In this document: positions 1 through 14,714 of the stretch, piece by piece
How the letters are laid out: each line of letters opens with the position of its first letter
Numbering within the stretch: the stretch's first letter is position 1
Source of the DNA: Candidatus Latescibacterota bacterium
GTDB lineage: Bacteria; Latescibacterota; UBA2968; UBA8231
Assembly: GCA_963422735.1 (NCBI GenBank)
Contig: OY730476.1
Location: 736,001 to 800,000 of the forward strand
DNA length: 64,000 bases
Direction of reading: 5' to 3'
Translations under genes and position numbers: made by a program
Notes under the pieces: model-generated
Told to the model about the DNA's origin: nothing
The model's database searches: none
Seen by the model: only the letters and a program-made list of their open reading frames with translations

Positions 1-488
1 TGGCCCGCCCTTCGCTCTACCAAGCATGCGAGGTGTTGGGGGAGGAAGAGTGCGACTTTTTGCGGCAAGGGGTCTTTCGGCGCGTGGAGCGCAATGCGGC
101 TTTATCCCACGCCAACCCCCTCAAGCCTGAAGAATGGGAACCCCTCCTCATGTACGATCGCGTCACTTGGTGCATGAGCCGACTCAAGTGGCCATTAGCT
201 TTTGTCGGCCACACGCACGAAGCGCGCATTTATTGCAATATGCGCGACGACCCCGTGCCGCTGACCTCGGCCACGGTCGCCATAGGGGAGCACCAATACT
301 TAGTCGCCGTCGGCAGCGTCGGCCAACCCCGCGATGGCGACTGGCGGTCAGCCTATACCCTGTGGGATCCCGACGAGCAATGGGTCGAACTCCAGCGCGT
401 CGAATACCCGGTCAAGCTGACCCAACAGAAGATCGACAATCTCGGCTACCCCAACTATCTAGCCGAGCGCCTTGCCAAAGGGGAGTAG
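1..488 (+). CDS. Metallophosphoesterase family protein (5'-truncated by window edge)
   Basis: Motifs 'FVGHTH', 'VGSVGQPRDGD' and 'RVEYPV' typical of calcineurin-like phosphoesterases; stop TAG 486-488. Confidence 0.85.
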   Translation, partial: ARPSLYQACEVLGEEECDFLRQGVFRRVERNAALSHANPLKPEEWEPLLMYDRVTWCMSRLKWPLAFVGHTHEARIYCNMRDDPVPLTSATVAIGEHQYLVAVGSVGQPRDGDWRSAYTLWDPDEQWVELQRVEYPVKLTQQKIDNLGYPNYLAERLAKGE

Positions 489-504
489 GCAGAGGCGGGC
501 GCTT

Positions 505-1410
505 ATGCAGGGCCGCATCATCAGAGTCTCTGGGCTACAGTGCCTCGTCGAGGTCGAGCAAAGCCACTGGCAATGCGAGATTAGAGGCCGTCTCAAGGCC
601 GGATGCCGCAAGACCAGCTCTCCGGTCGTCGCCGGCGATTGGGTTGATGTCGTACCTACGGCCGAACGGACGGGCGTCATCGAAGCGGTACATCCCCGAT
701 CTTCCAAGTTCTCGCGCGGAGCCAGTGGGACGCGCCCGTTTGAGCAGATCCTCTTTGTCAATATGGAGCAATTGGTCGTCGTCATAGCCGCTTGCCAACC
801 AAGCCCCCGCCGCGGCTTTATCGACCGAGCGATTGTCATGGCCGTAAAGGGAAATCTCCAGCCCGTGGTCTGCATCAACAAGGTCGATTTAGTCTCCCCA
901 GCGGCCGTGGGAACCCTGACCGCGCCCTACGAGGCCCTCGGTTATCCAATCTATCGCACCAGTGCCCTACGAGGCGACGGCATGGGCGCGTTCAAAGAAG
1001 CCCTGATCAATCGCAGTACGGCCGTGGTCGGTCAATCTGGGGTCGGCAAATCGACCTTGCTCAACGGCATCGAGCCGGGGTTGGGACTAAAGACAAAAGA
1101 AATAATGAAGCGCCACGACCGGGGCCGGCACACGACCACGACCGTGCATTTGTTCAAGTTGCAACAAGGCGGCTATGTGGCCGATACGCCGGGGGTTAAA
1201 GAACTCCGCTTATGGGGAGTAAAACCCGCCGAGCTAGAGACGTATTATCCCGAGCTAGACCCCCTGCGTGGCCAGTGTCAATTCGGCGATTGCAGCCACT
1301 TGCACGAACCCGGTTGCGCGGTTCGTGCGGCCGTGGCGGCCGGCCATGTGGCGTCGGCGCGCTACGAAGGATACCGGCGTATCTTCGAAAGCTTAAGTAG
1401 CGATGAGTGA
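505..1410 (+). CDS. rsgA: Ribosome small subunit-dependent GTPase A
   Basis: Circularly permuted GTPase motifs NKVD, GQSGVGKS, RGRHTTT, DTPG; C-terminal Zn motif CQFGDCSHLHEPGC; ATG at 505 preferred over TTG 472. Confidence 0.95.
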   Translation: MQGRIIRVSGLQCLVEVEQSHWQCEIRGRLKAGCRKTSSPVVAGDWVDVVPTAERTGVIEAVHPRSSKFSRGASGTRPFEQILFVNMEQLVVVIAACQPSPRRGFIDRAIVMAVKGNLQPVVCINKVDLVSPAAVGTLTAPYEALGYPIYRTSALRGDGMGAFKEALINRSTAVVGQSGVGKSTLLNGIEPGLGLKTKEIMKRHDRGRHTTTTVHLFKLQQGGYVADTPGVKELRLWGVKPAELETYYPELDPLRGQCQFGDCSHLHEPGCAVRAAVAAGHVASARYEGYRRIFESLSSDE

Positions 1411-2344
1411 ACTGACTATCAAGGATCTACTAGCCACCTACGGGCAGCAACTGAAGCTGAAGCTCATCGCCGGCACCAAGGGGCTACAGCGGACTATTAA
1501 CAACAGCGACATCCATCGCCCCGGCTTGGCTCTGACGGGCTTCGTCGAGCTGTTTACCTTGGATCAAGTGCAGATATTGGGCAATACCGAAGTGGAGTAC
1601 CTACGCAGCTTGTCCCTAGACCGACGGCGGCAGGCTCTCAAAATCATATATCAATTCGATATTCCATGCGTGGTCTTGACCAGTCGGGGGCGCGTGTACT
1701 CCGAGTTGCGGCAGCTAGCCGATGAGTGCGCGGTTCCGTTGCTGAAGTCCGAATTCAACACAGCCGAGTTTACCCATCTCATCCGCTTTTACCTCGACGA
1801 GGTGTTTGCGCCCCAAGTGTCCGTACATGGGACGCTGGTCGACGTCTCTGGAGTAGGGCTGCTCTTTCGCGGCCGCAGCGGCATTGGCAAAAGCGAGGTC
1901 GCCTTGGATTTGGTCGAGCGCGGGCATCGGCTGGTAGCCGACGATATAGTCATCATCAATCGCAAGCCCCAAGGTATTTTGGTGGGGCGTAGCTCGGAGA
2001 TGCTCCAAGACCAGATCGAAATTCGCGGCATCGGCATCCTAGACGTAAAGAAGATGTTTGGCGCGTGGGGGACTCGGCGGCAGAAGCGGGTGGAGGTATT
2101 GGTCAACCTCGTCGATTGGGATGAAAAATATGCCTACGAACGCCTCGGCCTCGAAGACAATAAGGTGGTAATCCTCGGTGTCGAGGTGCCCGAGGTCTTC
2201 ATCCCTTTGTTTCCCGGCAAAAATATCACGGTACTCGCCGAGACCATAGCGATAGATTATCTCTTGCGCTTGGACGGGGAGTACGCGGCGCAGGCGTTTA
2301 GCGAGCGGCTCCGCGAGCGGATTAAGGCGGGCAGGAAACCATGA
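1403..2344 (+). CDS. hprK: HPr(Ser) kinase/phosphorylase
   Basis: IHRPGLALTG, VHGTLVDV, GRSGIGKSEVALDLVERGHRLVADD, EIRGIGI motifs. Confidence 0.95.
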   Translation: MSELTIKDLLATYGQQLKLKLIAGTKGLQRTINNSDIHRPGLALTGFVELFTLDQVQILGNTEVEYLRSLSLDRRRQALKIIYQFDIPCVVLTSRGRVYSELRQLADECAVPLLKSEFNTAEFTHLIRFYLDEVFAPQVSVHGTLVDVSGVGLLFRGRSGIGKSEVALDLVERGHRLVADDIVIINRKPQGILVGRSSEMLQDQIEIRGIGILDVKKMFGAWGTRRQKRVEVLVNLVDWDEKYAYERLGLEDNKVVILGVEVPEVFIPLFPGKNITVLAETIAIDYLLRLDGEYAAQAFSERLRERIKAGRKP

Positions 2345-3150
2345 TGACGCTCGGCGTGGCAGGCCATGCCCGCGAGGTAGCCGTCCATCGGGATGCCTTG
2401 CGGGGCTGCCGCGATATCCAGCTCGTACACCAAGCCGACTGCGCCGCGGTTTTGGAGCAGAAAATAGATGGCCTAGTGCTGTTGCACGTGGACGATAAAT
2501 CGCATTGGATCGGCGTGGCCATAGCGTCTGGTCTGCCCGTTATGGCTACCCATCCCGTACAGGATCCGTTTGCAAATAGCCATCCCAATGTGTGCGTGCT
2601 GTCCTTGGGGAGGCATACGCACTTTTGCACGGCTCTGGCCGCCCGACAGGGCATAGCGCATTATTCCTTGGAGCTTTCTTTTGATTCGGCTTCATTCGAT
2701 CCGATTGACCGCGCGACGATCTGCAACCAAGCAGCTTTGGACGTATGCGACTTGCTGCTGAGCACTTGGGGGCCGGTAGATGTGCTGTACAGTAGGATGT
2801 GCAACTTCTTTCATCCCGGTCGCATGGAGGACGTGTCGGTCGCGTTGCTAAGGATGCGCAACGGCGTCGAAGGCTCGGTTGCGCTCCTCGACTTTCCGGC
2901 TGTAGCCCCGGCTTTGCGGACCCGCGCGTATGCACAGGGCGAAATATTCGATACGTCTTGGCCTTGGGCATGGGAAGTGGACGATCTAGCGGTGTACTAT
3001 CGCAATTTCATCGCCTGTATCCAAGGGCGTACCCAGCCGCTGTTGGGTTTGGGACAGGTGGCCGAAAGCTATAGTCTTTTGGAATGGATGCGTATGTCGG
3101 CGAGACAAGATGCGGTTTTAAGCCGCAGACAAGTAAACAAGCGTTTATGA
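2341..3150 (+). CDS. Divergent Gfo/Idh/MocA-like oxidoreductase family protein
   Basis: Weak N-terminal 'LGVAG' Rossmann start; C-terminal 'EDVSVALLRMRNGVEG' and 'FIACIQGRTQPLLG...SAR' resemble the Gfo/Idh/MocA C-domain; ATGA overlap with hprK. Confidence 0.5.
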   Translation: MMTLGVAGHAREVAVHRDALRGCRDIQLVHQADCAAVLEQKIDGLVLLHVDDKSHWIGVAIASGLPVMATHPVQDPFANSHPNVCVLSLGRHTHFCTALAARQGIAHYSLELSFDSASFDPIDRATICNQAALDVCDLLLSTWGPVDVLYSRMCNFFHPGRMEDVSVALLRMRNGVEGSVALLDFPAVAPALRTRAYAQGEIFDTSWPWAWEVDDLAVYYRNFIACIQGRTQPLLGLGQVAESYSLLEWMRMSARQDAVLSRRQVNKRL

Positions 3151-3207
3151 ATGAATGTCTTATAAAATTTTTTATGTAAATCAAAAATAAAAATCAGCAT
3201 ATATATA

Positions 3208-3732
3208 ATGAATGAACCATCCACGCCACCCACATACTTCGCTCTTGCATTAGCAAGCTTCTTATTAGCAATCGTGTTGCTGTTCAACTTGCTCAGCCCT
3301 ATGGCCATGCAGGTTACCAAGGAGCAGTTCGCTCAGATAAGAGAGGCCGATCTCATCGAGTATCTGATCGTGCAACCCCGGGGATTTACTTGGCAGCTCA
3401 AAAGGGCTGTGCGCGTCCAAGGGACCAACGGCGCGACGATGGCGGAGCGTATCGCGCTAGCTGAGCCCGACCCAGCCGTGGCCGAAGATTGGCGACAAAA
3501 GGGAGGAGCGGTGCGCCAAGAGCAAGATACCTCTTGGGGGGGGGGTGCAGTCTTCATCGCCTTGTTGCTCAGCGTGGGGGGATGGCACATCTGGTCCCAA
3601 ATACGGCTGGATCTCAAAGGGGGAGGGGGGCCACGCCGCCGCTTGCGCGACTTGGAAACCGCGCTCAAACAAGGCAAGATTACCCAAGCCGAATTCCGGC
3701 AGCAGGCCGAGCGGCTCTGGGCCGAATTGTGA
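3208..3732 (+). CDS. Two-TM membrane protein with C-terminal SHOCT-like domain
   Basis: Hydrophobic segments near aa 10-32 and 113-130; C-terminal 'LRDLETALKQGKITQAEF' SHOCT-like; ends 6 nt before mutL. Confidence 0.65.
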   Translation: MNEPSTPPTYFALALASFLLAIVLLFNLLSPMAMQVTKEQFAQIREADLIEYLIVQPRGFTWQLKRAVRVQGTNGATMAERIALAEPDPAVAEDWRQKGGAVRQEQDTSWGGGAVFIALLLSVGGWHIWSQIRLDLKGGGGPRRRLRDLETALKQGKITQAEFRQQAERLWAEL

Positions 3733-3738
3733 GGATAT

Positions 3739-5481
3739 ATGGTGGGTAGCATTCGCGTTCTCGACGAAAGTCTCATTGGAAAAATCGCCGCCGGCGAGGT
3801 AGTGGAACGGCCGGCCTCGGTCGTGAAGGAGTTGGTTGAAAACTCGATCGATGCGGGTGCCGCTGAAATCCGCGTGGAAATCAAGGCCGGTGGCAAGCAG
3901 TCGATTGTCGTGACCGACGATGGATCGGGTATGAACAGGGAGGATATTGCTTTGTGCGTACACCGGCATGCCACGAGCAAGATGGCCTCGGTGGCGGACC
4001 TGTTTCGCATTCAGACGTTGGGGTTCCGCGGCGAGGCCCTAGCCAGCATTGGTGCGGTTGCCTACTTGGCGATAGAATCGCGCACACAGCAAAACGAAGC
4101 AGGGACGCGCTTGGTCGTGGAAGGGGGGATAGAGCGAGAGATGCACAGTATCGGCCGAGCGCACGGCACGACCATTATAGTAAAGAACTTGTTTTTTAAT
4201 ACGCCTGCGCGACGCAAGTTCCTCCGGTCCGTCGATGTGGAAGCCCGCCACGTGGCACAGACCATCATCCATTTATCCGCTGGCTACCCGGCCCTTGGCT
4301 TTGAACTAGCACGAGAAGATCGCCAAGTCTTGAGCTACGCCCCGGCATCTCGTCGAGAGCGGGCAGCCGAGTTGTTAGGGATTCAAGCGGCCGAATTGTT
4401 GGATCTCGCTTACGAGGAGGAAGGTCTCAAAATCGAAGGAGTCTTGGCCGGTCCCGAACACTGCGGCCGAAGCAAGGGCAAGCAGTACCTCATCGTACAG
4501 GGGCGGCCCATTTCTTCGCGACTGATGGCCAACGCCGTACAGCGGTGCTTTGAGGGGCTGCTGCCCGAAGGACATCATCCGGTATTTATGCTCTGGATCG
4601 ATATGGATCCCAAGAAAATCGACGTCAATGTCCATCCGACAAAGCGGGAGATTCGCTTGGCCAACGAAGGGCAAGTCATCGCGGCCATTGATAACAGCGT
4701 CCGGCAGAAGCTCAGGCTGCCCGATATGCAATCCTTTGTCTATGCTGCGGCCCCAATTCTGAGGCCGGACAGGATCCGCGTGGGCGAACCGGCGTCGCCG
4801 GTGTTGCACAGCCTACCCGCACCCGGCGAGCCCGAGTTAGCAGCAACCCATGATGTAGATGATCAACTTTCTCTGACTCTCGTCGCTCCGGCCGCGGCCA
4901 GAGTCGCCATAACCGAAGACGCCGCGATGTGGCAGGTCCACAACCAGTATATCCTCGTCGAGGTGGCCGATGGCTTGCTCTTTGTCGATCAGCAGGCCGC
5001 GCACGAACGCATTAACTACGATCGGGCCATGGCGCAAATGGACGGCGTGGCCGGCGAGAGTCAGCAGTTGCTCTTTCCCATACAGCTAGAAATGGGCGCA
5101 GCGGATTTTGAGGTCTTCAACCAAGTGCGGGCCGACATTGCCAAGCTGGGCTTTGTCGTGCGGGATTTTGGTACGCGGACGGTGTTGGTGGAAGCTGTCC
5201 CGGCTGAATTGGATCGCTTTGGCGAAGGCGATGTTTTCTATCAACTACTGAACGACATGCACGATGGCCAGCATTCGGGCCGGTCTTGGCGCGAAGCACT
5301 CGTCTTGGCGTACGTGCATAAAGCGAGCATCAAAAAAGGGCAGAAACTGAACGCCGAGGAAATGGCACACTTGATCGACGAATTGCTAAAGGTTGACACG
5401 CCGCACATAAGCCCGACGGACAAGCCGGTTATGACGCGGATGAAGTTGGGCGATATGGAGCGTCTGTTGCGGAAGTTCTAG
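3739..5481 (+). CDS. mutL: DNA mismatch repair endonuclease MutL
   Basis: IAAGEVVERPASVVKELVENSIDA, GFRGEAL, DVNVHPTK, DQQAAHERI endonuclease motif. Confidence 0.97.
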   Translation: MVGSIRVLDESLIGKIAAGEVVERPASVVKELVENSIDAGAAEIRVEIKAGGKQSIVVTDDGSGMNREDIALCVHRHATSKMASVADLFRIQTLGFRGEALASIGAVAYLAIESRTQQNEAGTRLVVEGGIEREMHSIGRAHGTTIIVKNLFFNTPARRKFLRSVDVEARHVAQTIIHLSAGYPALGFELAREDRQVLSYAPASRRERAAELLGIQAAELLDLAYEEEGLKIEGVLAGPEHCGRSKGKQYLIVQGRPISSRLMANAVQRCFEGLLPEGHHPVFMLWIDMDPKKIDVNVHPTKREIRLANEGQVIAAIDNSVRQKLRLPDMQSFVYAAAPILRPDRIRVGEPASPVLHSLPAPGEPELAATHDVDDQLSLTLVAPAAARVAITEDAAMWQVHNQYILVEVADGLLFVDQQAAHERINYDRAMAQMDGVAGESQQLLFPIQLEMGAADFEVFNQVRADIAKLGFVVRDFGTRTVLVEAVPAELDRFGEGDVFYQLLNDMHDGQHSGRSWREALVLAYVHKASIKKGQKLNAEEMAHLIDELLKVDTPHISPTDKPVMTRMKLGDMERLLRKF

Positions 5482-5542
5482 CCGGTTATTGGAGTTTTAG
5501 CAGGATGGTTATTAGGGTGCCGACTTGGGCAACAAGTTGTCC

Positions 5543-5571
5543 TTGACTTTTATTTTCTTGTAAGTTATACT
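5543..5571 (+). promoter_or_regulatory. Sigma-70 promoter of the recombinase gene
   Basis: TTGACT (5543-5548), 17-nt spacer, TATACT (5566-5571). Confidence 0.75.
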
Positions 5572-5600
5572 ATCTATAACAGGCATTATCGGTAGTATAA
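5565..5600. other. dif-like tyrosine recombinase target site
   Basis: TTATACTATCTATAA-CAGGCA-TTATCGGTAGTATAA: 15-bp inverted arms (2 mismatches) with ATAA-N6-TTAT core, 26 bp upstream of the recombinase ATG. Confidence 0.7.
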
Positions 5601-5626
5601 AAACCAATAGCCCCTGCGAGCATTCA

Positions 5627-6607
5627 ATGAGCGAAACACTTAATCCGGTCGTCAACAGGCTGACGCCAACTCCAGCGTTAGCATTAGCAGCGGACGATCC
5701 TTTGGAACAATTTCTCAGCGGCCAACTCAGCGAGCGCACGCGGCGTGCGTATTACGCTGATCTCCAGCATTTCTTTTTTTCTATCGGCATGGAGCTAAAT
5801 GAAGTCTCCCTCACCATCTTGCAGTCAATCACCTTTGAGCACGTGGTCGCCTTTAGAAATCAACTCGCCAGCGCAGGCTACAAACGCAGCAGCATCAACA
5901 GAAAATTGTCCAGCCTGAAGTCGTTGTTCAAGATGTTAGTCGCTTTAGGCCACATTGAGAAAAATCCCGCTGACTCCACCTTGGTACGCGGCTACAAGGT
6001 GGACGAAACACTGGCCGGCAAAGCGCTTTCTAATGAGGTGCTGAATAAGCTCCAGCAAGCTATTGCCCAAGAAAAAGACGACTTGGTCCGCACTCGGGAT
6101 GCGGCCATGTTCCATTTGCTCACTTTTGGCGGGCTGCGCCGCTCCGAAGTGGCAGGGGTCGCTTGGGAGGATATATCCTTGGAGGGCGTTTTTCACATCC
6201 TGAACCTGCCCCAAACTAAATCAGGCGTGGCTCAGGAAATCAAACTACAAAACATCGTCTTACATTATCTCGAACTATACAAACAACAACTACAAGTAGC
6301 GGGCTTGCCGACGACCGGCAAGGTCTTTATCAGCCTGTCGCGCAACCATTCTCACGGCCAGCCGCTGACTGACCAATCGGTCAATCACATCGTCAAGAAG
6401 TACGCCCTGCGCGTCGGCCTCTCCCAAAACGTCACCGCGCACATGTTCCGCCACACCTGCTGCACCTTGGCGATTGAAGGCGGAGCCAAGCCCCAGCAGG
6501 TGCAAGCCCATTTGCGTCACAAGGATCTAAAGACAACCATGCGCTACTACGAAAATCGCGAGAAGCTGCTCGATAATGCGTCTGATTATATTAGGATTAG
6601 TAGTTGA
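5627..6607 (+). CDS. Tyrosine recombinase (Xer-like)
   Basis: Catalytic set R (GLRRSE), K (TKSG), HxxR (HMFRH), H (HLRH), Y (TTMRY); N-terminal SAM-like domain 'SERTRRAYYADL...SINRKLSSLKSLF'. Confidence 0.93.
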   Translation: MSETLNPVVNRLTPTPALALAADDPLEQFLSGQLSERTRRAYYADLQHFFFSIGMELNEVSLTILQSITFEHVVAFRNQLASAGYKRSSINRKLSSLKSLFKMLVALGHIEKNPADSTLVRGYKVDETLAGKALSNEVLNKLQQAIAQEKDDLVRTRDAAMFHLLTFGGLRRSEVAGVAWEDISLEGVFHILNLPQTKSGVAQEIKLQNIVLHYLELYKQQLQVAGLPTTGKVFISLSRNHSHGQPLTDQSVNHIVKKYALRVGLSQNVTAHMFRHTCCTLAIEGGAKPQQVQAHLRHKDLKTTMRYYENREKLLDNASDYIRISS

Positions 6608-6642
6608 TTATTTTTTGTTTACATATTAAATAGTATAAGACA

Positions 6643-9573
6643 TTACACCACGATATTTACAATTTTATTCGGCACCCATATAAACCGTTTTATCGCTGTC
6701 TCATCTGCTACGTATTTCTGGATGCTCTCCATGTCGAGCACCAAGGATTTTATCTCATCTTCTCCGGTGTGGACCGGCACTTCGACTTGGCCGCGCATTT
6801 TGCCATTAACCTGAATGGGCAAAACGATCGTGTCCTCGGCGGCTTTTGCTGCATCCCACTCGGGCCAGTTCCGGCGACTGACCCCTTCCGTCCCGAAACC
6901 CGCCATTTCCCATAGCTCCTCGGCAATGTGCGGAGCAAAGGGCGCGAGCAGGATCAAGAAGGGCTTAGCGATGGCCTGTGGCACCTCGTCTAAAGGAACC
7001 AACAGGTTGTTTAACTCGATCAAGGCGGCAATGGCCGTATTAAACCGAAGCCCCTCTATATCCTCGGTTACCTTTTGGATGGTTTGATGCAGCTTTCTTT
7101 CCAGCTCCGGCGCAAGCGCAGTGCTCTCCCCTATTTTCACCTGTCGATCCGCATCGACAAAGTTGCGCCAAACGCGCTGCAAGAAGCGCTGCATCCCGCG
7201 AATGCCTTCCATGCTCCACGGCGCACTCGCTTCGAGCGGCCCCATGTACATTTCGTACAGCCGCAAAGTATCCACGCCAAATTCCTCGCCAACCTCTTCG
7301 GGCGGCAGCCCGTTTTTGTAACGTTTGCCCATTTTGCCGGGAGACCGGCGCAGCGTCTTCCCCGTCCCTTTCTCAATAGGCTCTCCGTCGCGGAACTCAA
7401 CTTCGCGAATGTCGATATACACGCCGCGATCGTCCTGAAAAGCATCTGCGGTCATCATACCTTGATTGAACAGCTTCTTAAACGGCTCGGGCGTGGATAC
7501 GTGCCCTAAGTCGTAGAGGGCCTTGTGCCAAAACCGGGCGTAGAGCAAGTGCAACACGGCGTGTTCAGCGCCGCCGATGTAGAGATCAACGGGCATGAAG
7601 TAGCCCTCCTTGGCCAAGTCGCAGAAGGCTTCTTCGTTGTGTGGGTCAATAAAGCGGAGATAGTACCAGCAAGAACCGGCCCATTGGGGCATGACATTGA
7701 GTTCGCGCTGGCAGGCCACCCCGTCAATTTCCACCGTCATCCACTCCGCTCCGGCCCGGTGCAGCGGAGGCGAAACGGGGCGGGCGGGATCGTCGGAGGT
7801 CTCCGGTCTAAAATCCTCTATATCCGGCAGTGCCACCGGAGGCGCGACCGCTACGGAATATCCATCGGGATGCGTGGCCAGTGGAAAAGGTTCGCCCCAA
7901 TAGCGCTGCCGCGCGAAGGTCCAGTCGCGCAGTTTGTGGTTTACCGCAGATTGGCCGCGCCCTTGGGCGACTAGTGCAGCGACAATCTGGACTTTGGCCG
8001 CGGCCGTTGGCAATCCGTTAATGGCATACGGACTATCGCCGCTATCATCCTTCCGTGACGGAGGCGAATTGATCGCGGTTCCCTCCCCAGCATACCACTC
8101 TGTCTCGCCAGCACTGGCGAGACAGAGCACGGTCTCCTCTTCCCCGGTAACTACCTTCACAATGTCCAAGTTATAGGCAGTGGCGAAGGCGAAATCGCGC
8201 TCGTCGTGGGCCGGCACGGCCATAATCGCTCCCGAGCCGTAGTCCATACTGATGTAGTCGGCGACGAAAACGGGAATTTTTTGTCCACTGACTGGATTGC
8301 GGGCGTAGATGCCGGAGAAGATGCCCGTTTTTTCCTCGGTTTCATCTGCAGTGGAGACAGCAGCCTGAGCGACGTACTGGGCTACAGCTTCCCGAATGGG
8401 ATTCCCTCCCCCCTTCCCCTTCCACTGCTGAGGCGTCCTGTCGGGCCAAGTGCTGGGAACCAAGTAGGATTCCTCAGCAGGATCCACCAGCGGATGCTGA
8501 GGCGCAACGGCCATAAAGGTCGCCCCAAAGAGCGTATCGGGCCGGGTCGTGAACACGGGTAACTGCCCAGCGACCACATCGCTTTGCGGATCGAGGATAT
8601 CAAAGTACACTTCAGCCCCTTCGCTACGACCAATCCAGTTGCGCTGCATCCGCTTGATAGGTTCTGGCCAATCGAGCCGGAAGGGCTCGCCGTTGCGATC
8701 CTCTAGCTCGAAGTCCAAGTCCTCTAAGAGCCGCTCGGCGTAGGCTGTTATACGCATTGTCCACTGCCGCAGCGGTTTGCGATATACGGGAAAAGCGCCC
8801 CGCTCGCTGCGGCCTTCGTTGGTTACCTCCTCGTTGGCCAACACAGTGCCCAAGCCTGGGCACCAGTTGACGACGGCCTCTTGTTGGTACGCTAGCCGGT
8901 AGTTGTTTAGCACGGCTTGGTGCTCGGCCGCACTGAGTGCTGACCAGTCAGCATCAGTGCCGAGTACTTCGCGATCTGCAACCGACAATGCCCTGCCAGC
9001 CGCAAATTGGTCCTCTAAGTCGGCGATAGGCTTGGCCCGCCCTTTTATTTGCCGTCTATTGCCGTCTTCCCAGATCTCGTCTGCGTCGAAATAGCTATCG
9101 AAAAGTTGGGCAAAAATCCACTGGGTCCAGCGGTAGTACGATACCCGCGACGTGACCTGTTCGCGGGCCCAGTCAAACGACAGCCCGAGGAACTGCAATT
9201 GGCCGCGCATCGCATCAATATTTTGCTCGGTAACAGCCGCTGGATGAATGTTGTGTTCGATGGCGTATTGCTCGGCCGGCAATCCGAAACTGTCGAACCC
9301 CATCGGATGCAGGACGTTAAATCCCTGCATCCTTTTGTAGCGGCTGTAGATGTCGCTGGCGATATACCCTTTGGGATGGCCGATGTGCAACCCCGCGCCG
9401 CTTGGATAGGGAAACATATCGAGGACGTAGCACTTGGGTTTGCTGTCATCGAAACCGGGGTCTCCCGGTCCCAGCGTTTGATAAGTCTTCTCCTGATCCC
9501 AGTGGGACCGCCATTTGGCTTCGATAGTTTGGAAGTTGTAGTTGTATTGGCCTTTTTTTGATTTTGTTGACAT
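6643..9573 (-). CDS. leuS: Leucine--tRNA ligase
   Basis: DMFPYPSGAGLHIGH, MQRNWIGRSEG, GGAEHAVLHLLYARFW, KMGKR (KMSKS variant). Confidence 0.97.
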   Translation of the reverse strand: MSTKSKKGQYNYNFQTIEAKWRSHWDQEKTYQTLGPGDPGFDDSKPKCYVLDMFPYPSGAGLHIGHPKGYIASDIYSRYKRMQGFNVLHPMGFDSFGLPAEQYAIEHNIHPAAVTEQNIDAMRGQLQFLGLSFDWAREQVTSRVSYYRWTQWIFAQLFDSYFDADEIWEDGNRRQIKGRAKPIADLEDQFAAGRALSVADREVLGTDADWSALSAAEHQAVLNNYRLAYQQEAVVNWCPGLGTVLANEEVTNEGRSERGAFPVYRKPLRQWTMRITAYAERLLEDLDFELEDRNGEPFRLDWPEPIKRMQRNWIGRSEGAEVYFDILDPQSDVVAGQLPVFTTRPDTLFGATFMAVAPQHPLVDPAEESYLVPSTWPDRTPQQWKGKGGGNPIREAVAQYVAQAAVSTADETEEKTGIFSGIYARNPVSGQKIPVFVADYISMDYGSGAIMAVPAHDERDFAFATAYNLDIVKVVTGEEETVLCLASAGETEWYAGEGTAINSPPSRKDDSGDSPYAINGLPTAAAKVQIVAALVAQGRGQSAVNHKLRDWTFARQRYWGEPFPLATHPDGYSVAVAPPVALPDIEDFRPETSDDPARPVSPPLHRAGAEWMTVEIDGVACQRELNVMPQWAGSCWYYLRFIDPHNEEAFCDLAKEGYFMPVDLYIGGAEHAVLHLLYARFWHKALYDLGHVSTPEPFKKLFNQGMMTADAFQDDRGVYIDIREVEFRDGEPIEKGTGKTLRRSPGKMGKRYKNGLPPEEVGEEFGVDTLRLYEMYMGPLEASAPWSMEGIRGMQRFLQRVWRNFVDADRQVKIGESTALAPELERKLHQTIQKVTEDIEGLRFNTAIAALIELNNLLVPLDEVPQAIAKPFLILLAPFAPHIAEELWEMAGFGTEGVSRRNWPEWDAAKAAEDTIVLPIQVNGKMRGQVEVPVHTGEDEIKSLVLDMESIQKYVADETAIKRFIWVPNKIVNIVV

Positions 9574-9592
9574 AATAATCCTTATAAGACAC

Positions 9593-10897
9593 TTATGGAT
9601 AGAGGCGCTGCATCATGCGCGGAAATGGAATGGTCTCGCGCACATGCTTGACGCCGCACAACCAAGCGACCACCCGCTCGATTCCCATGCCAAAGCCAGC
9701 GTGCTCTACCGAGCCATAGCGCCGCAAGTCGAGATACCAACTAAAGGCTTCTAGGGGCAACTGATGCGCGGCGATCTTGGGCTGCAAGACGGCGAGATCG
9801 TCTTCGCGTTGCCCGCCTCCGATGATTTCCCCGTATCCTTCGGGAGCCAACAGGTCCATGCACAGGGCCAAGCGGCGATCTTGGGCATCTTCCTTCATGT
9901 AGAATGCTTTGACTGCGCTGGGATAGCGGTGGACGAAAACCGGTGACTCAAACTCGGAGGCGAGGACGGTTTCATCGTCCCCACCCAGATCACTCCCCCA
10001 TGTGATGTCGTTACCAAGAGCTGTCAAGCGCTCGACAGCTTCATCGTACGTTATGTGCGGAAAGGGCCGGCTGATCCGTTCCAGCTTGGCGATGTCTCGG
10101 TCGAGGTGCTTTAGCTCTTCGCGGCGGCGGTTGAGCACGCGGTCGAGCACGTACAGGACCATGTCCTCGGCTAAGACCATAGCACCCTCTAAATCGCAAT
10201 ACGCCATTTCCGGCTCGATCATCCAGAACTCGGTCAGGTGCCGGCGAGTCTTGGACTTTTCAGCGCGGAATGTCGGCCCAAAACAATAGACCTTACCCAA
10301 GGCCATGGCGGCTGCTTCCATATAGAGCTGACCGCTCTGGGTCAAATAAGCCGTGTCGTCGAAATACGCGGTCTCAAACAGGGTCGAGGTCCCTTCACAG
10401 GCCGCAGGCGTAAAAATCGGCGCATCGACGAGAACAAAGCCGCGCACTTCCATGAAGTCGCGGCAGGCTTTGCAAATTTCGCTGCGGATCTTGAGAATGG
10501 CCCCGGGCCGCCTCGACCGCAGCCACAAGTGGCGGTGGTCGAGGAGAAAGGACACCCCGTGTTCCTTGGGGGCGATGGGGTATGGCTCGGCCTCCTGCAC
10601 GACGTCGAGGTGGCAGACCCCCACCTCATAGCCGATGGGCGCACGCGCCTCCCGCCGCACTTGGCCGCGGACTACGAGCGAAGATTCTTGGGGCAAGTGA
10701 TCGCACCGCTCGAATAACTCGGACTCGACATCCCCCTTAAAAACAACGCATTGTACCACGCCGCTGCCGTCGCGTAGCTGCAGAAAATGCAGCTTGCCGC
10801 TGGAGCGCTTGTTGTACAACCAACCGCGCAGTTTTACTTCTCGACCCTCGTAGCGGCCGATGTCAGCCACCTGAATCGACTCCATTTGCTTATTCAT
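9593..10897 (-). CDS. asnS: Asparagine--tRNA ligase
   Basis: [49 protein letters not shown]. Confidence 0.96.
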
Positions 10898-10912
10898 ATA
10901 CCATATAATAGG

Positions 10913-10943
10913 AAAAGACTATCGAGATGGACTCGATAGCCTT
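10913..10943 (-). terminator. Intrinsic terminator after pnp
   Basis: Minus strand AAGGCTATCGAG-TCCAT-CTCGATAGTCTT followed by short T-run. Confidence 0.55.
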
Positions 10944-10969
10944 CTCATCCTGTGGCTTAAGACCAACAC

Positions 10970-13039
10970 CTACTTCTTTAGTAGGGCCTTGTGGCTGAGC
11001 CGCATCTTGCCGCCGGTGTCGATTTCGAGGACCTTGACGGCGATCGTGTCCCCTTGTCCAACGACATCCTCAACCTTGTCCACGCGCCGATGCGCTAGCT
11101 CGGAGATGTGCAACAGGCCCTCCTTGCCGGGCAGAATCTCGACGAAGGCTCCAAAGGGCATGACCCGCTTGACCACCCCGTCGTACTCTTTACCGACCTC
11201 GGCGTCGGCGGTGATTGCCTCAATCATGCGCCGAGCCTGTTCGGCTGGACCGGCCTCAACAGAGGCAATGGTAATCGTGCCGTCTTCATCAACATTGACC
11301 GTGGCACCGGTCTTTTCGATCTCGCGGATGGTTTTGCCACCTGGTCCGATGACCGCGCCGATTTTGCTCTGGTCGATCTTGACAAACTCAATGCGCGGTG
11401 CCCAGCGCGAAAGTTCGGGCCGCGCCTCGCTCAGGCATTCGTTCATACTAGCTAAGACCTTGTCGCGCCCCTCCTTGGCGCGATCGAGGGCCTCCTTGAA
11501 AATATCGAGCTGCAAGCCTTGGATTTTAATATCCATCTGGATCGCGGTAATCCCGTCCTTGGTGCCAGCGACCTTGAGGTCCATGTCGCCGAGAAAATCT
11601 TCGGCGTCGCGGATGTCGGTCAGCAGCTCGTACTCGTCCCCCTCCTTGACTAAGCCCACGCCCGTGCCGCATACCGCGGTTTTGACGGGAATTCCGGCGT
11701 CCATCAAGGCGAGGGAGCAGCCACACACCGTGGCCATGGAACTGGAGCTGCTCGACTCGGTAATATCCGACACCAACCGAATCGTATAGGGAAAGGACTC
11801 GACCGATGGGATAACCGGTTCTAGGGCGCGTTCGGCCAGATGACCGTGGCCGATATCCCGACGCCCTGGACCGCGCTCAAAGCGCACTTCGCCGACCGAA
11901 TACGGAGGAAAGTTGTAATCTAAATAATAGGACTTAAACCGCTTGCCCTGCAGGTCGTCGGCCATGCGCTCGTCTAGCTTGGTACCCAGCGTTGCCACGC
12001 AGAGCGCTTGCGTCTGCCCACGGGTAAAAAGTGCCGATCCGTGCGTCCGCGGCAACACAGTGCTTTCGCAGGCGACGTCGCGCACAGCATCAAGCGCCCG
12101 CCCGTCGATGCGCCGCTTCTCCTCGATGATCATGGTGCGCATGTCGGCCTTGAGCAGCACCTCCAACTCGTCCTTGATATGCTTTTCAGAGTCTGGAAAG
12201 CGCTCGGCCAAGCTCCCCAAGACCTCGGCATTAATCGCGTCGATGCGCTCTTGTCGCTCTTCTTTGAGCGGGCTTCTGTTGGCCTCGGCGATCCGCTCTT
12301 GCGCCAGCTCGGCTACGGCATGGACCAGTTCGGGATCGGCTTCCTCGATCTCAATGGCAATCTTCTCCTTGCCGACTTCGGCGACAAGCTGCTCCTGTAA
12401 CTCGGCCAATTCGGCGATGCACTCGTGGCCAAAGGCCAGCGCATCCACTAGATCTTGCTCGGCAATCTCGTGGGCACCTCCTTCGACGCTGACGATGGAA
12501 TCGGCCGTGCCACAAACTATGATTTCGAGATCAGAATCATCTAGCTCGGCGGAGGTTGGATTGGCGACGAACTCGCCGTTGAGCCGCCCGACTCGCACGG
12601 CTCCCATGGGGCCGGCAAAGGGAATGTCGGAGATACTCAGGGCCGCCGAGGCCCCGATCAAACCCAAGACATCGGCGTCGTTTTCTCTGTCGTACGAAAA
12701 CACCGAAACATAGACTTGGATCTCATAGGGGAACTTCTTGGGAAACATCGGCCGAATGGGATGATCTATTAATCGAGCACTCAGGGTCTCCTTTTCGGAG
12801 GGGCGCCCTTCGCGCTTGAAGATGTTGCCCGGTATCTTGCCGCCAGCGTAGGCTTTTTCCCGGTAATCGACGATCAAGGGCAAAAAGCCCCGATCCTCCG
12901 GGGTCTTAGTCCGACAGGCCGTTACGAGCACTACGGTCTCCCCGTATTGCAGCCACACGGCCCCGTTGGCTTGCTTGGCGATTCTGCCCGTTTCGATCGA
13001 CAGACTCCGCCCGCCTATTTCACATTCGAGTTTAGTCAT
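10970..13039 (-). CDS. pnp: Polyribonucleotide nucleotidyltransferase
   Basis: Two RNase PH domains, RTHGSALFTRGQTQ, YNFPPYSVGE, GDMDLKVAG, KH (IGPGGK) and S1 domains; follows rpsO. Confidence 0.97.
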   Translation of the reverse strand: MTKLECEIGGRSLSIETGRIAKQANGAVWLQYGETVVLVTACRTKTPEDRGFLPLIVDYREKAYAGGKIPGNIFKREGRPSEKETLSARLIDHPIRPMFPKKFPYEIQVYVSVFSYDRENDADVLGLIGASAALSISDIPFAGPMGAVRVGRLNGEFVANPTSAELDDSDLEIIVCGTADSIVSVEGGAHEIAEQDLVDALAFGHECIAELAELQEQLVAEVGKEKIAIEIEEADPELVHAVAELAQERIAEANRSPLKEERQERIDAINAEVLGSLAERFPDSEKHIKDELEVLLKADMRTMIIEEKRRIDGRALDAVRDVACESTVLPRTHGSALFTRGQTQALCVATLGTKLDERMADDLQGKRFKSYYLDYNFPPYSVGEVRFERGPGRRDIGHGHLAERALEPVIPSVESFPYTIRLVSDITESSSSSSMATVCGCSLALMDAGIPVKTAVCGTGVGLVKEGDEYELLTDIRDAEDFLGDMDLKVAGTKDGITAIQMDIKIQGLQLDIFKEALDRAKEGRDKVLASMNECLSEARPELSRWAPRIEFVKIDQSKIGAVIGPGGKTIREIEKTGATVNVDEDGTITIASVEAGPAEQARRMIEAITADAEVGKEYDGVVKRVMPFGAFVEILPGKEGLLHISELAHRRVDKVEDVVGQGDTIAVKVLEIDTGGKMRLSHKALLKK

Positions 13040-13128
13040 TAGATATATCTTTTGCTCTTTCCTTTAGGGTTTTAAGATCTGTGCAACACCCGTTCCAACG
13101 AGCACTGCGGTGAGTCGCTCAGTACGAG

Positions 13129-13401
13129 CTAACGGCGCAATCCAAGATCGCGGATCAACGCCGCATACGCTTGCGGGTTTTTCTTGTGGTAGTAGCTCTG
13201 CAATCGCCTCCTTTTGCCTATGAGTGTGAGTAACCCCCGCCGCGTGGCAAAGTCCTTTTGCTGGTCTTTGAGGTGTTCGGTCAGGTTCCGGATGCGCTCG
13301 GTGAGAATAGCAATCTGCACCGGGGCGGATCCAGGGCCACCCTCTTGGCCGAACTTATCGATCAGTACTTTCTTGCGTTCAGTTGTTATCGACACCTTCA
13401 A
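13129..13401 (-). CDS. rpsO: 30S ribosomal protein S15
   Basis: GSAPVQIAILTERIRNLTEHL...RRGLL...GLRR. Confidence 0.96.
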   Translation of the reverse strand: MKVSITTERKKVLIDKFGQEGGPGSAPVQIAILTERIRNLTEHLKDQQKDFATRRGLLTLIGKRRRLQSYYHKKNPQAYAALIRDLGLRR

Positions 13402-13817
13402 CCTCCGTATTTCGCGCCGAGCTTTCCACCTTCAGCACTAGAGGAGAACAGGGCACGTGCTTGGTGAATATCTCTGCGGATTTGCGCTACCAGCTCGTCT
13501 GGACAGGCAAATGCGCGTTGGTCGCGCAGCTTTTTTACGAGGACGACCTGTAGGTTTTGTCCGTAGAGGTCGCCGGCAAAATCGAGTATGTGCAACTCGA
13601 CGACTATGGCTGCTTCGACAAATGTAGGCCGGGGGCCGATATGGGCCACGGCCTGGAAAACCCGACTGTTAGGGTATTGCACTTCAGCGGCAAATACCCC
13701 CTGCGGCAGGGGCTTATCGCCTTGAGGCAGCAAATTCGCCGTGGGAAACCCCAGTGTTCTACCGCGTCCTTGGCCCCTCGTGACGCGGCCGGAAAAATGA
13801 ACGCTAGCGCACTCCAT
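13398..13817 (-). CDS. Monofunctional riboflavin kinase (RibF C-terminal domain only)
   Basis: GRGRTLGFPTANL, IGPRPTF, ELHILDF, LRDQRAF; 139 aa, starts directly after truB stop so no adenylyltransferase domain. Confidence 0.88.
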   Translation of the reverse strand: MECASVHFSGRVTRGQGRGRTLGFPTANLLPQGDKPLPQGVFAAEVQYPNSRVFQAVAHIGPRPTFVEAAIVVELHILDFAGDLYGQNLQVVLVKKLRDQRAFACPDELVAQIRRDIHQARALFSSSAEGGKLGAKYGG

Positions 13818-14714
13818 CTAAGGTTGGCGCAAAACGCAAAGGGGTCGCAACGCCCCCTTCTCCCACCGTGCGAGGCCAAACAAGGTTTCCGTAGCGTCAA
13901 AAACCGCGCAGACTTCGCGCGGCCCTGTGCCAACTGGATGCTCTATCGCCTTCCCATGGGCGAAATCGACCAGCTTGCCTTCGTTCAGCTCGACGGCCGC
14001 TAGCTCACTCAGCGCCAGTCGAGGATGGACGAGGGCCTTTTCAATTTGGCCCGCTCTACTGAGGCTTATTACTTGCTCCAATGTTAGGGCTTTGTCCAGC
14101 CCGAGACCACCGGCGCGGATCCGGCGCAATGCCGCCAAATAGGCACCGGTCCCCAAGGTGTGCCCCAGATCGGCGGCCAACGAGCGAATGTACGTTCCCG
14201 CAGAGCAGTGGATTCTCACGCTGAGTATAGGGAAATCGTAGCCGAGCAGGTCCATTGCGTGGATGTGAACCTGGCGAGCTTTGAGAACGACCTCATCCCC
14301 GCGACGTGCCCTCTTGTACGAGCGCACCCCGGCTACCTTTATAGCTGAATGCGCCGGCGGCACTTGGTCTATGGCACCCGTAAAATCGCGCAGGGCTTGG
14401 GCCACGCTTTGGTCGTCGGGAGGCGCACAGTCTTCTTGGAGGTAAATCGGGCCCTCAGCATCGCCTGTGGCACTTACAGCCCCCAGACAAATCTCGGCCT
14501 CATATTCCTTATCCGCGCCGCTGAGCCACCGGTTGAGCCGGGTATAACGCCCCAAGCAAACGACCAAGACGCCGCTGGCCAAGGGGTCCAGCGTGCCGCA
14601 GTGACCAATGCGCCGCAACTGCAATAGGCGTCTGAGCGAGGCGATTACGTCGTGGGAAGTGGGGCCTTTGTCTTTGTCGATGACCAAAACCCCGGTCAAG
14701 GCCGGATCAGCCAT
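13818..14714 (-). CDS. truB: tRNA pseudouridine(55) synthase
   Basis: DKDKGPTSHDV, GHCGTLDPLASGVL, CSAGTYIRSLA; ATG 14714 with GGAG SD. Confidence 0.96.
   Translation of the reverse strand: MADPALTGVLVIDKDKGPTSHDVIASLRRLLQLRRIGHCGTLDPLASGVLVVCLGRYTRLNRWLSGADKEYEAEICLGAVSATGDAEGPIYLQEDCAPPDDQSVAQALRDFTGAIDQVPPAHSAIKVAGVRSYKRARRGDEVVLKARQVHIHAMDLLGYDFPILSVRIHCSAGTYIRSLAADLGHTLGTGAYLAALRRIRAGGLGLDKALTLEQVISLSRAGQIEKALVHPRLALSELAAVELNEGKLVDFAHGKAIEHPVGTGPREVCAVFDATETLFGLARWEKGALRPLCVLRQP

Follow-up and report, generated by a model that had tools for sequence, protein, structure and literature searches.

The window analysed here is a 64,000-nucleotide stretch of a Candidatus Latescibacterota genome (positions 736,001-800,000 of the single 4.95-Mb contig, OY730476.1). 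It carries a tyrosine recombinase gene, Rec3, that lies between mutL and leuS, and a 36-bp palindrome, PAL, lies just upstream of the gene. Both sit at the replication terminus and are bracketed by two inversely oriented dif-like sites. We consider the chances about even that Rec3 and PAL are a phage-derived recombinase/site pair that has been captured in a D-type dif module at the terminus, where it would act as a second device for resolving chromosome dimers or unlinking sister chromosomes. Coordinates are those of the window unless the genome is named, and other genomes, loci and genera are referred to by G, L and g numbers.

Rec3 (5627-6607, + strand) is a Xer-like protein of 326 amino acids (aa), as judged from the list of open reading frames (ORFs), profile searches and an alignment. 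The Pfam domain Phage_integrase (PF00589) is matched at 99.3 bits, against a cut-off of 27.1, and the SAM-like N-terminal domain Phage_int_SAM_1 at 43.5 bits. All of the catalytic residues are present. R171, K198, H272, R275, H298 and Y307 are invariant in the 26/26 Rec3 orthologues aligned; their catalytic roles are presumably those given by their positions in the motifs. The PF00589 match and this R-K-H-R-H-Y set place Rec3 in the tyrosine recombinase superfamily, and bear out an earlier note on this DNA that had described a lone, catalytically intact tyrosine recombinase between mutL and leuS. Rec3 falls under every NCBIfam Xer cut-off: XerC (TIGR02224, 129.8 vs. 335.15), XerD (TIGR02225, 120.1 vs. 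329.6), XerA (NF040815, 105.9 vs. 220) and XerS (NF003462, 83.5 vs. 267). The nearest solved chain is Escherichia coli XerD (1a0p, E-value 2.8e-17), and XerA is matched at 3.5e-9. The match to the XerH chain 5jjv is weak (E-value 3e-4, 23.1 bits). Rec3 is a sequence member of neither the XerS nor the XerH family, the latter as judged on chain 5jjv. The genome encodes four tyrosine recombinases, namely Rec3, XerD, a XerC-like protein and a 403-aa integrase, and Rec3 is single-copy.

PAL (5565-5600) ends 26 bp before the Rec3 ATG. Its 15-bp arms are complementary at 13/15 positions and enclose an ATAA-N6-TTAT core, just as the earlier note had described. The conserved part is a 28-mer (5569-5596) with 11-bp arms that flank the asymmetric spacer CAGGCA (5580-5585); one arm ends in ATAA and the other begins with TTAT. 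In 100 shuffles of the window there was no PAL match at ≤3 mismatches, and no second copy was found in the whole 4.95-Mb genome at ≤8 substitutions. We searched 41 genomes with the degenerate pattern ACT-N4-ATAA-N6-TTAT-N4-AGT, using the reversed pattern as a control. The pattern matched 21/41 genomes (G000 and 20 of the 24 others of the genus, but 0/16 of other families); the control matched 0/41. A protein search gave 59 Rec3 loci, 57 of which were usable. PAL was called where an upstream 28-mer had ≥16/22 positions of a consensus built from these loci and ≥8/11 complementary arm pairs, and by this measure it is found upstream of Rec3 in 52 of the 57, to as low as 57% protein identity. The loci without a call are L061, L064, L066, L070 and L085, of which L070 and L085 hold degenerate look-alikes. 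Among 40 distinct PAL sequences 89.1% of the arm cells are complementary. Changes on both sides are seen at 4/11 arm positions, with a covariation score of 0.098 vs. 0.060 in shuffles (reached by 0/500). The site is thus conserved upstream of orthologues, as the earlier note's proposal requires, and its arms show some compensatory change.

The ATAA-N6-TTAT edges of PAL are invariant, as in Xer sites, and the 6-bp spacer is kept as CAGGCA or a near variant, which may face either way with respect to the gene. PAL is still intact with 0.9 or 2.5 kb between site and gene (L059, L062), and it is conserved also where the promoter lies downstream of it. Since PAL is kept far from the gene, outside the promoter and with its spacer in either orientation, a duplex protein-binding or recombination site is favored over an RNA element or a mere operator. 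PAL can be folded into a 14-pair stem with a 6-nt loop, which would suit a terminator or RNA element unrelated to the recombinase. The fold is, however, weak (-4.2 kcal/mol, z-score -1.74) and 10/200 shuffles fold as well. No T-run follows PAL, and an Rfam search of positions 2500-10000 returned no family. The two spacer orientations would alter an RNA loop, and arm positions 5-7 are often mismatched while the edges stay invariant. We regard the chance that PAL is only such a hairpin as close to negligible.

Several other features of PAL were observed. The orientation of the spacer differs even in sister genomes (window/L040 and L044/L045). Ordinary strand exchange by a recombinase cannot flip its own spacer, and template switching at the inverted arms is a plain guess for how these flips arise. 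Four loci (L046, L080, L059, L062) have 0.4 to 2.5 kb of extra DNA between mutL or PAL and the recombinase gene. A sigma-70-like promoter match (5543-5571, + strand; TTGACT, 17-nt spacer, TATACT; 10/12 positions) puts its -10 hexamer (5566-5571) in the left outer arm of PAL. This is the sole promoter-like match in 3000-6800; the scan gave 1 match vs. a shuffle mean of 2.7, so it is to be read as a consensus match only. Relatives have approximately 100 bp more between PAL and the ATG than the window does (5601-5626), with a conserved block that ends in a TATATT-like motif. This motif may be their promoter.

The earlier note had expected the site to be single-copy. This is true of PAL with its CAGGCA spacer, but not of the arm design, as two other sites of the same design with another spacer occur in the genome (1,987,960-1,987,987 and 2,789,142-2,789,169). 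The two sites are identical over 31 bp, mutually inverted and 801 kb apart, and they share no flanking similarity. The first is kept at the same place in G018, G012, G002 and G007; it lies 15 bp past the stop codon of an ORF of 305 aa, in a gene cluster for predicted secreted proteins. Only the window genome has the second, and variant sites are present in G001 and G004. We considered these palindromes as the ends of an 801-kb inversion and rejected this, as both flanks of the copy at 1,987,960 are colinear with those four genomes and there is no sign that the two sites have recombined.

Several lines of evidence place the module at the replication terminus. Across the whole genome, the cumulative GC skew is highest in the 1-kb bin 741,001-742,000, and PAL (741,565) falls within that bin. 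Gene orientation converges at the PAL region, and strand-skewed G-rich octamers swap strand there. The dnaA gene is at 3,070,039, i.e., 47% of the chromosome away from PAL. The distance between Rec3 and dnaA is 0.48-0.52 of the (rounded) genome size in 12 further genomes of the genus that have a single or main contig. In other genera (G108, G115, G116) Rec3 is 0.46-0.54 of the chromosome from dnaA. In all 18 single-contig or near-complete genomes, including two (G142, G111) that have a Cre-like recombinase in the slot of Rec3, the module is 0.46-0.54 from dnaA.

Two dif-like 26-mers form the boundaries of a segment that contains Rec3. The left site (3156-3181, + strand) has 20/20 genus-consensus positions and is the best in the genome. 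It is made up of an outer XerC-type arm (3156-3165), a 6-bp A/T spacer (3166-3171) and an inner XerD-type arm (3172-3181). The right site (6617-6642, - strand) is inverted relative to the left and degenerate, with 17/20 positions. The earlier note had seen no flanking att repeats, which these inverted sites contradict. A genome-wide scan with the 26-mer (20 specified genus-consensus positions, threshold ≥16/20) gave only four hits, all of them ≤26 kb from the terminus. The third (9566-9591, - strand, 18/20) overlaps the leuS start codon (ATG), and the fourth is at genome position 715,879 (+ strand, 16/20). Arms were assigned as XerC- or XerD-type by their likeness to the dif of sister families and to Acinetobacter sites. 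The sister families have XerC/XerD and one dif only. In their 5/5 complete genomes a pattern search placed a single dif opposite dnaA (0.475-0.507 of the chromosome), and G025 and G032 encode only two tyrosine recombinases each. The inner arm of the dif-like sites in the Rec3 family matches the XerD-side arm of this single dif. This match, together with the two sister genomes that have only two tyrosine recombinases, identifies the outer sites as dif. With inversely oriented sites and XerD-type arms on the inside, the layout is that of a D-type dif module.

Both flanking sites were detected in 20/57 loci, the downstream reverse-oriented site in 32/57 and the upstream site in 24/57 (≥16/20). 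The threshold is derived from the genus, and in other genera often only the downstream site passes. The dif pair of other genera brackets only PAL and Rec3 (L053, L058, L063, L074). The mutL gene is enclosed by the pair in genus g1, whereas L053, L063 and L074 have it outside. The dif-like site at the leuS start also occurs in nine loci (L030, L033, L036, L037, L039, L040, L042, L054, L052), and a 15/20 copy at genome position 733,577 (+ strand) ends directly at the ATG of a 170-aa ORF. The extra dif-like copies near the terminus are on the plus strand on the left arm and on the minus strand on the right arm. They may be degraded remnants of module boundaries, or else start regions whose AT-richness makes them look like dif. 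Synteny was tried as a guide to the ancestral state and given up: in G025, G032, G066 and G068 mutL adjoins neither leuS nor any ATAA-N6-TTAT site.

The window genome also encodes the classical system. XerD scores 337.1 bits (cut-off 329.6), a XerC-like protein beside topA scores 316.2 bits (cut-off 335.15), and there is an FtsK with a gamma domain. The XerD model is matched at an E-value of 1e-60 or better in 62/63 genomes of the family, and 63/63 have a match to the XerC of the window genome. A single XerD-model hit in some genera (g11, g12, g17-g19) and three tyrosine recombinases in G140 first suggested that XerC had been lost there, with Rec3 replacing it. This was rejected, as a divergent XerC-like gene (43-44% identity) is present where a 437-aa integrase had been read.

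The earlier note had proposed that Rec3 and its palindrome are an independently evolved single-recombinase system for dimer resolution, in place of XerCD/dif and like XerS/difSL or XerH/difH. PAL does adjoin the gene at the terminus, is near-symmetric and is conserved, and Rec3 is single-copy and vertically patterned within one family. A site next to the gene is given as a possible hallmark of single-recombinase systems in the relevant section of a 2017 review (PMC5357621). Against this, XerD, a XerC-like protein and FtsK-gamma are encoded, the first two in nearly all or all genomes of the family, and the module has canonical dif-like sites on both sides, 2.4 kb upstream and 10 bp downstream. 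The note had itself held that a canonical XerCD/dif at the real terminus would speak against the proposal. This is the arrangement that we found, and the proposal fails in its strong form. A recombinase/site module at the terminus remains of it, but not as the sole system. Rec3 and PAL are an extra system beside XerCD/dif rather than a replacement, and replacement is now highly improbable.

The bracketed segment has inverted repeatedly. It is 3.5 kb long (orf174-mutL-PAL-Rec3) and lies between the flanks hprK-orf269 and leuS. Within the genus it is oriented one way in 17 loci and the window, and the opposite way in 10 loci. The flanks swap partner exactly at the 26-mers, and the breakpoint between orientations falls inside the 26-mer. 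A tree of 25 rows, with the partial loci L046, L047, L048 and L080 left out, calls for at least 7 orientation changes, 5 of which are imposed by branches with strong support; the number is not below that for random labels (mean 7.6). Opposite orientations are found even in sister pairs approximately 3% apart. The breakpoints in the 26-mer and the at least 7 changes are what is expected of a dif module that rearranges by crossover within its sites. As the right site of the window genome is degenerate and the spacers of its left and right sites differ, the segment may now be locked in this genome.

In the close pair L037/L038, which have opposite orientations, a variant of the outer arm travels with the inner segment and not with the flank. 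Either some crossovers took place outside the spacer, or homogenisation of the arms followed. We also considered inversion as an on/off switch for mutL. This was rejected, as in both orientations the genes of the segment run with one flank and converge on the other, and there is no sign of a promoter outside.

Rec3 could itself be the enzyme that inverts the stretch bounded by the two dif-like sites. Many invertible systems carry the recombinase gene in or beside the invertible segment, and the segment around Rec3 has undergone at least 7 flips among 25 close relatives. Yet the dif-like arms have only ATAA in common with the arms of PAL. The dif-like sites have their match in the dif of sister families without Rec3, they persist around an unrelated Cre-like recombinase (see below), and XerC and XerD are available to act on them. 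In the part of a study of Acinetobacter that concerns such events, inversions occur between inversely oriented XerC/XerD sites (PMC13141974). An invertase role for Rec3 is therefore improbable.

Rec3 is restricted to one family, where it is single-copy in 53/62 other genomes and present in 14/15 genera. Rec3 was found in 0/77 genomes of the other families of the phylum at an E-value of 1e-50. Its identity tracks taxonomy, at 88-92% in most of the genus, 77-78% in G014-G016 and 58-68% in other genera. Between g1 and g19, Rec3 is 62-63% identical, LeuS 63%, Pnp 65%, MutL 41%, XerD 47-49% and XerC 43-44%.

Three genomes without Rec3 (G142, G111, G113) have another recombinase in the same slot between leuS and mutL. 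It is Cre-like, and its nearest solved chains are those of Cre (E-value 2e-19). In G142 and G113 the Cre-like gene has its own ATAA-N6-TTAT palindrome with different arms, placed over the -10 of a TTGAC(A/G)-17-TATAAT promoter; in G111 the palindrome of the Cre-like module is degenerate. The dif-like sites flank the Cre-like modules too, and these modules are antipodal to dnaA (0.49 and 0.48). The arms change with the enzyme while the dif-like sites stay. No other observation made here speaks as strongly for the palindrome as the site of the module's enzyme and for the outer sites as those of XerCD. The exchange of Rec3 for a Cre-like gene is compatible with cassette exchange. G142 also has two dif-like sites back to back (L117, 7602-7690), 17 bp apart, with XerD-type arms facing each other. 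The pair resembles an empty D module, and is followed by the Cre-like module and then by a third dif-like site.

The nearness of Rec3 to the host sites allows for one more role. Rec3 might partner XerC/XerD on hybrid sites, or bind PAL to modulate recombination at the neighboring dif. The nearest solved relative of Rec3 is XerD, and Rec3 is always within 0.1-2.5 kb of dif-like sites. However, a hybrid site, with one PAL arm and one dif arm, occurs in none of the 57 loci, and the slot can hold a Cre-like enzyme that is not Xer-like. We find it quite improbable that Rec3 works with or on the host Xer proteins.

The Rec3 module is likely of mobile-element, probably phage, origin, as far as sequence comparisons can tell. 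Collections of plasmid and phage records hold no close relative of Rec3 (≤33% identity), and a protein atlas search gave generic recombinase clusters only. The closest outside relatives that we found are on seven phage-like contigs in IMG/VR (44-45% G+C), which encode a full-length relative that is 42% identical and has the same C-terminal signature; a mobile-element origin is likely on this account. On one of them (L143) the recombinase adjoins a DNA methyltransferase, a repressor-type regulator and a RusA-like resolvase. A PAL-type palindrome was found within 2 kb of the recombinase on 0/7 of these contigs. The earlier note had raised domestication from a mobile element, and both the single copy of Rec3 and its phage-like relatives fit this suggestion.

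Such an origin also suits another account, namely that Rec3 and PAL are functionless cargo of a dif module. They would be a leftover phage or plasmid unit that is kept since inverted dif sites cannot excise, with PAL mainly an operator. The module layout with XerD-type arms on the inside is in keeping with this, as are the phage-like relatives, the housing of another recombinase type in the slot and the back-to-back sites of G142, which look like a module array. So is the position of the palindrome over the -10, which is seen in the window genome and, for the Cre-like modules, in G142 and G113. A gene without function would be expected to decay, but the catalytic residues are invariant in all 26 aligned orthologues, and Rec3 is as well conserved across genera as LeuS and Pnp. 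Its identity follows taxonomy, with none in other families, and PAL is conserved even far from the gene or outside the promoter. We consider mere cargo unlikely, though it deserves to be taken seriously.

For binding, cleavage, recombination partner and benefit to the cell, we infer the following. PAL would be the cognate core site of Rec3, with two monomers bound to the inverted arms, and cleavage by Rec3 would fall where ATAA and TTAT border the 6-bp spacer, in the manner of lox, difH or difSL sites. The host XerC/XerD most likely act on the outer dif sites, which would explain the flips of the segment among close relatives. With one PAL per chromosome, at the terminus, the only partner would be the sister copy. 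Rec3 would add a crossover between sister PALs, working beside XerCD/dif, and this crossover would resolve dimers or unlink sisters, as Cre/loxP does at E. coli dif. A second, homodimeric resolution site is therefore our leading interpretation of Rec3 and PAL. As PAL overlaps the only promoter-like match in the window genome, binding by Rec3 would repress its own gene.

A number of observations weigh against a second resolution or unlinking device. The main weakness is that the reason to keep a second system beside an apparently intact XerCD/dif is not explained; with XerC, XerD, dif and FtsK all intact, such a system looks redundant. The described single-recombinase systems all occur where XerCD is missing, so far as the sections drawn on here go (PMC9765430, PMC5357621, PMC1914069). 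Conservation of Rec3 within the genus (88-92%) does not exceed that of XerC (91-96%). PAL-like secondary sites with other spacers are present elsewhere in 7/25 genomes of the genus that were searched, which hints at a DNA-binding role beyond the terminus. The 52/57 count of PAL is somewhat circular, because the consensus was built from the same loci that were scored; the pattern search, which is independent of it, gives the cleaner result. Complementarity is absent at arm positions 5-7 in 11 to 15 of the 40 distinct sites, and covariation is seen at 4 positions only. The overlap of PAL with a promoter is found in the window genome and its sister L040 but not in most relatives. The GC skew is clean from 0 to 1.3 Mb and irregular beyond, with several local reversals, which suggests genomic rearrangements, or errors in the single-contig metagenome assembly; the comparison with dnaA is thus the stronger evidence for the terminus. 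Finally, the organisms are known only as metagenome assemblies.

The remaining features of the locus are its neighboring genes and signals. The mutL gene (3739-5481, + strand) is matched by Pfam MutL_C (106.5 bits), DNA_mis_repair (103.4 bits) and HATPase_c_3 (47.8 bits). The other neighbor of Rec3 is leuS (6643-9573, - strand). The first gene within the invertible segment is orf174 (3208-3732, + strand), a small predicted protein that is syntenic with mutL across the loci of the genus. Its sole Pfam match, GvpG, is sub-threshold (22 bits vs. a cut-off of 30.6). A terminator-like hairpin 3′ of mutL (5527-5542, + strand) comes from a consensus scan only. The earlier note was right that no tRNA is nearby, as none was found in positions 1-14000 of the window.

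We compared the module with four kinds of known systems. XerS/difSL of streptococci and lactococci and XerH/difH of Helicobacter and Campylobacter likewise have one recombinase gene with its site immediately upstream, a location at the terminus and two inverted arms, according to the sections consulted (PMC5357621, PMC1914069). In the account of the streptococcal system, difSL and xerS are one module, and difSL is possibly part of the promoter of the gene (PMC1914069). As there described, these lineages are without XerC/XerD and a canonical dif, whereas the Rec3 genome has both, with dif-like sites bracketing the module. The spacer is 6 bp in PAL vs. 11 bp in difSL, as given in the review (PMC5357621). 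Of the features of the single-recombinase Xer/dif class, Rec3 has the gene-linked site and one terminus site per chromosome, but it does not replace XerC/XerD/dif. XerL/dif of the Legionellales is likewise a lineage-restricted single tyrosine recombinase at a terminus site, and there a mobile element revealed the site (PMC9765430). No dif or xerC/xerD homologues were identified in the Legionellales, going by the portion of that work used here (PMC9765430), in contrast to the classical system present in the window genome; XerL was compared by its description only.

The closest likeness in layout is to the D-type dif modules of Acinetobacter Rep_3 plasmids and to chromosomal dif-module islands, which have the same cassette of inverted sites with XerD sites inside, crossover within the sites and site arrays, in the excerpts available (PMC13141974, PMC12907356). 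D modules and inversions between inversely oriented pdif sites are described in Acinetobacter in the first of these (PMC13141974). The Latescibacterota module differs in that it is at the chromosome's own terminus, in an unrelated phylum, and is passed down throughout a family. As cargo it carries a recombinase together with that enzyme's site (and mutL in this genus), rather than the resistance or toxin-antitoxin genes of Acinetobacter modules. The bracketing sites are, unlike those of Acinetobacter modules, apparently the only dif-like sites of the chromosome.

Among the top-ranked results of our literature searches, none dealt with Xer or dif in Latescibacterota, or with a recombinase gene enclosed by inverted dif sites on a chromosome. 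In the reviewed accounts, as far as they were drawn on, single-recombinase systems are seen only after they have replaced XerCD/dif, so that they do not show how such a module enters a chromosome. Rec3 is a recombinase/site pair inside the chromosome's own dif, family-wide, with XerC/XerD/FtsK-gamma still present. It is possible, though we lean against so broad a claim, that the terminus of this family is a chromosomal dif-module platform on which recombinase/site pairs of phage origin are captured, swapped by XerCD and put to use as a second resolution or unlinking device, a living intermediate towards XerS/XerH/XerL systems. If the module recombines sister chromosomes, it would offer a testable route for the origin of XerS/XerH/XerL-type systems, and would extend the dif-module idea from Acinetobacter plasmids to the chromosome terminus of a distant uncultured phylum. 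If it does not, there is still a frequently flipping terminus segment with mutL, bounded by paired dif sites.

Cre/loxP of phage P1 is the remaining comparison. It is likewise a homodimeric recombinase with a palindromic-arm site and an asymmetric spacer, features that Rec3 would share by analogy. In contrast, Rec3 is Xer-like, has a 6-bp spacer and is part of a natural chromosomal arrangement beside XerCD/dif; a true Cre-like protein takes up the slot in G142, G111 and G113. Cre-loxP within ter can substitute for XerCD-dif in E. coli and still depends on FtsK translocation, as stated in the part of the study relevant here (PMC2680272). If the sister chromosomes of these bacteria are recombined by the module, it would be a natural counterpart to the engineered experiment with Cre/loxP at dif.

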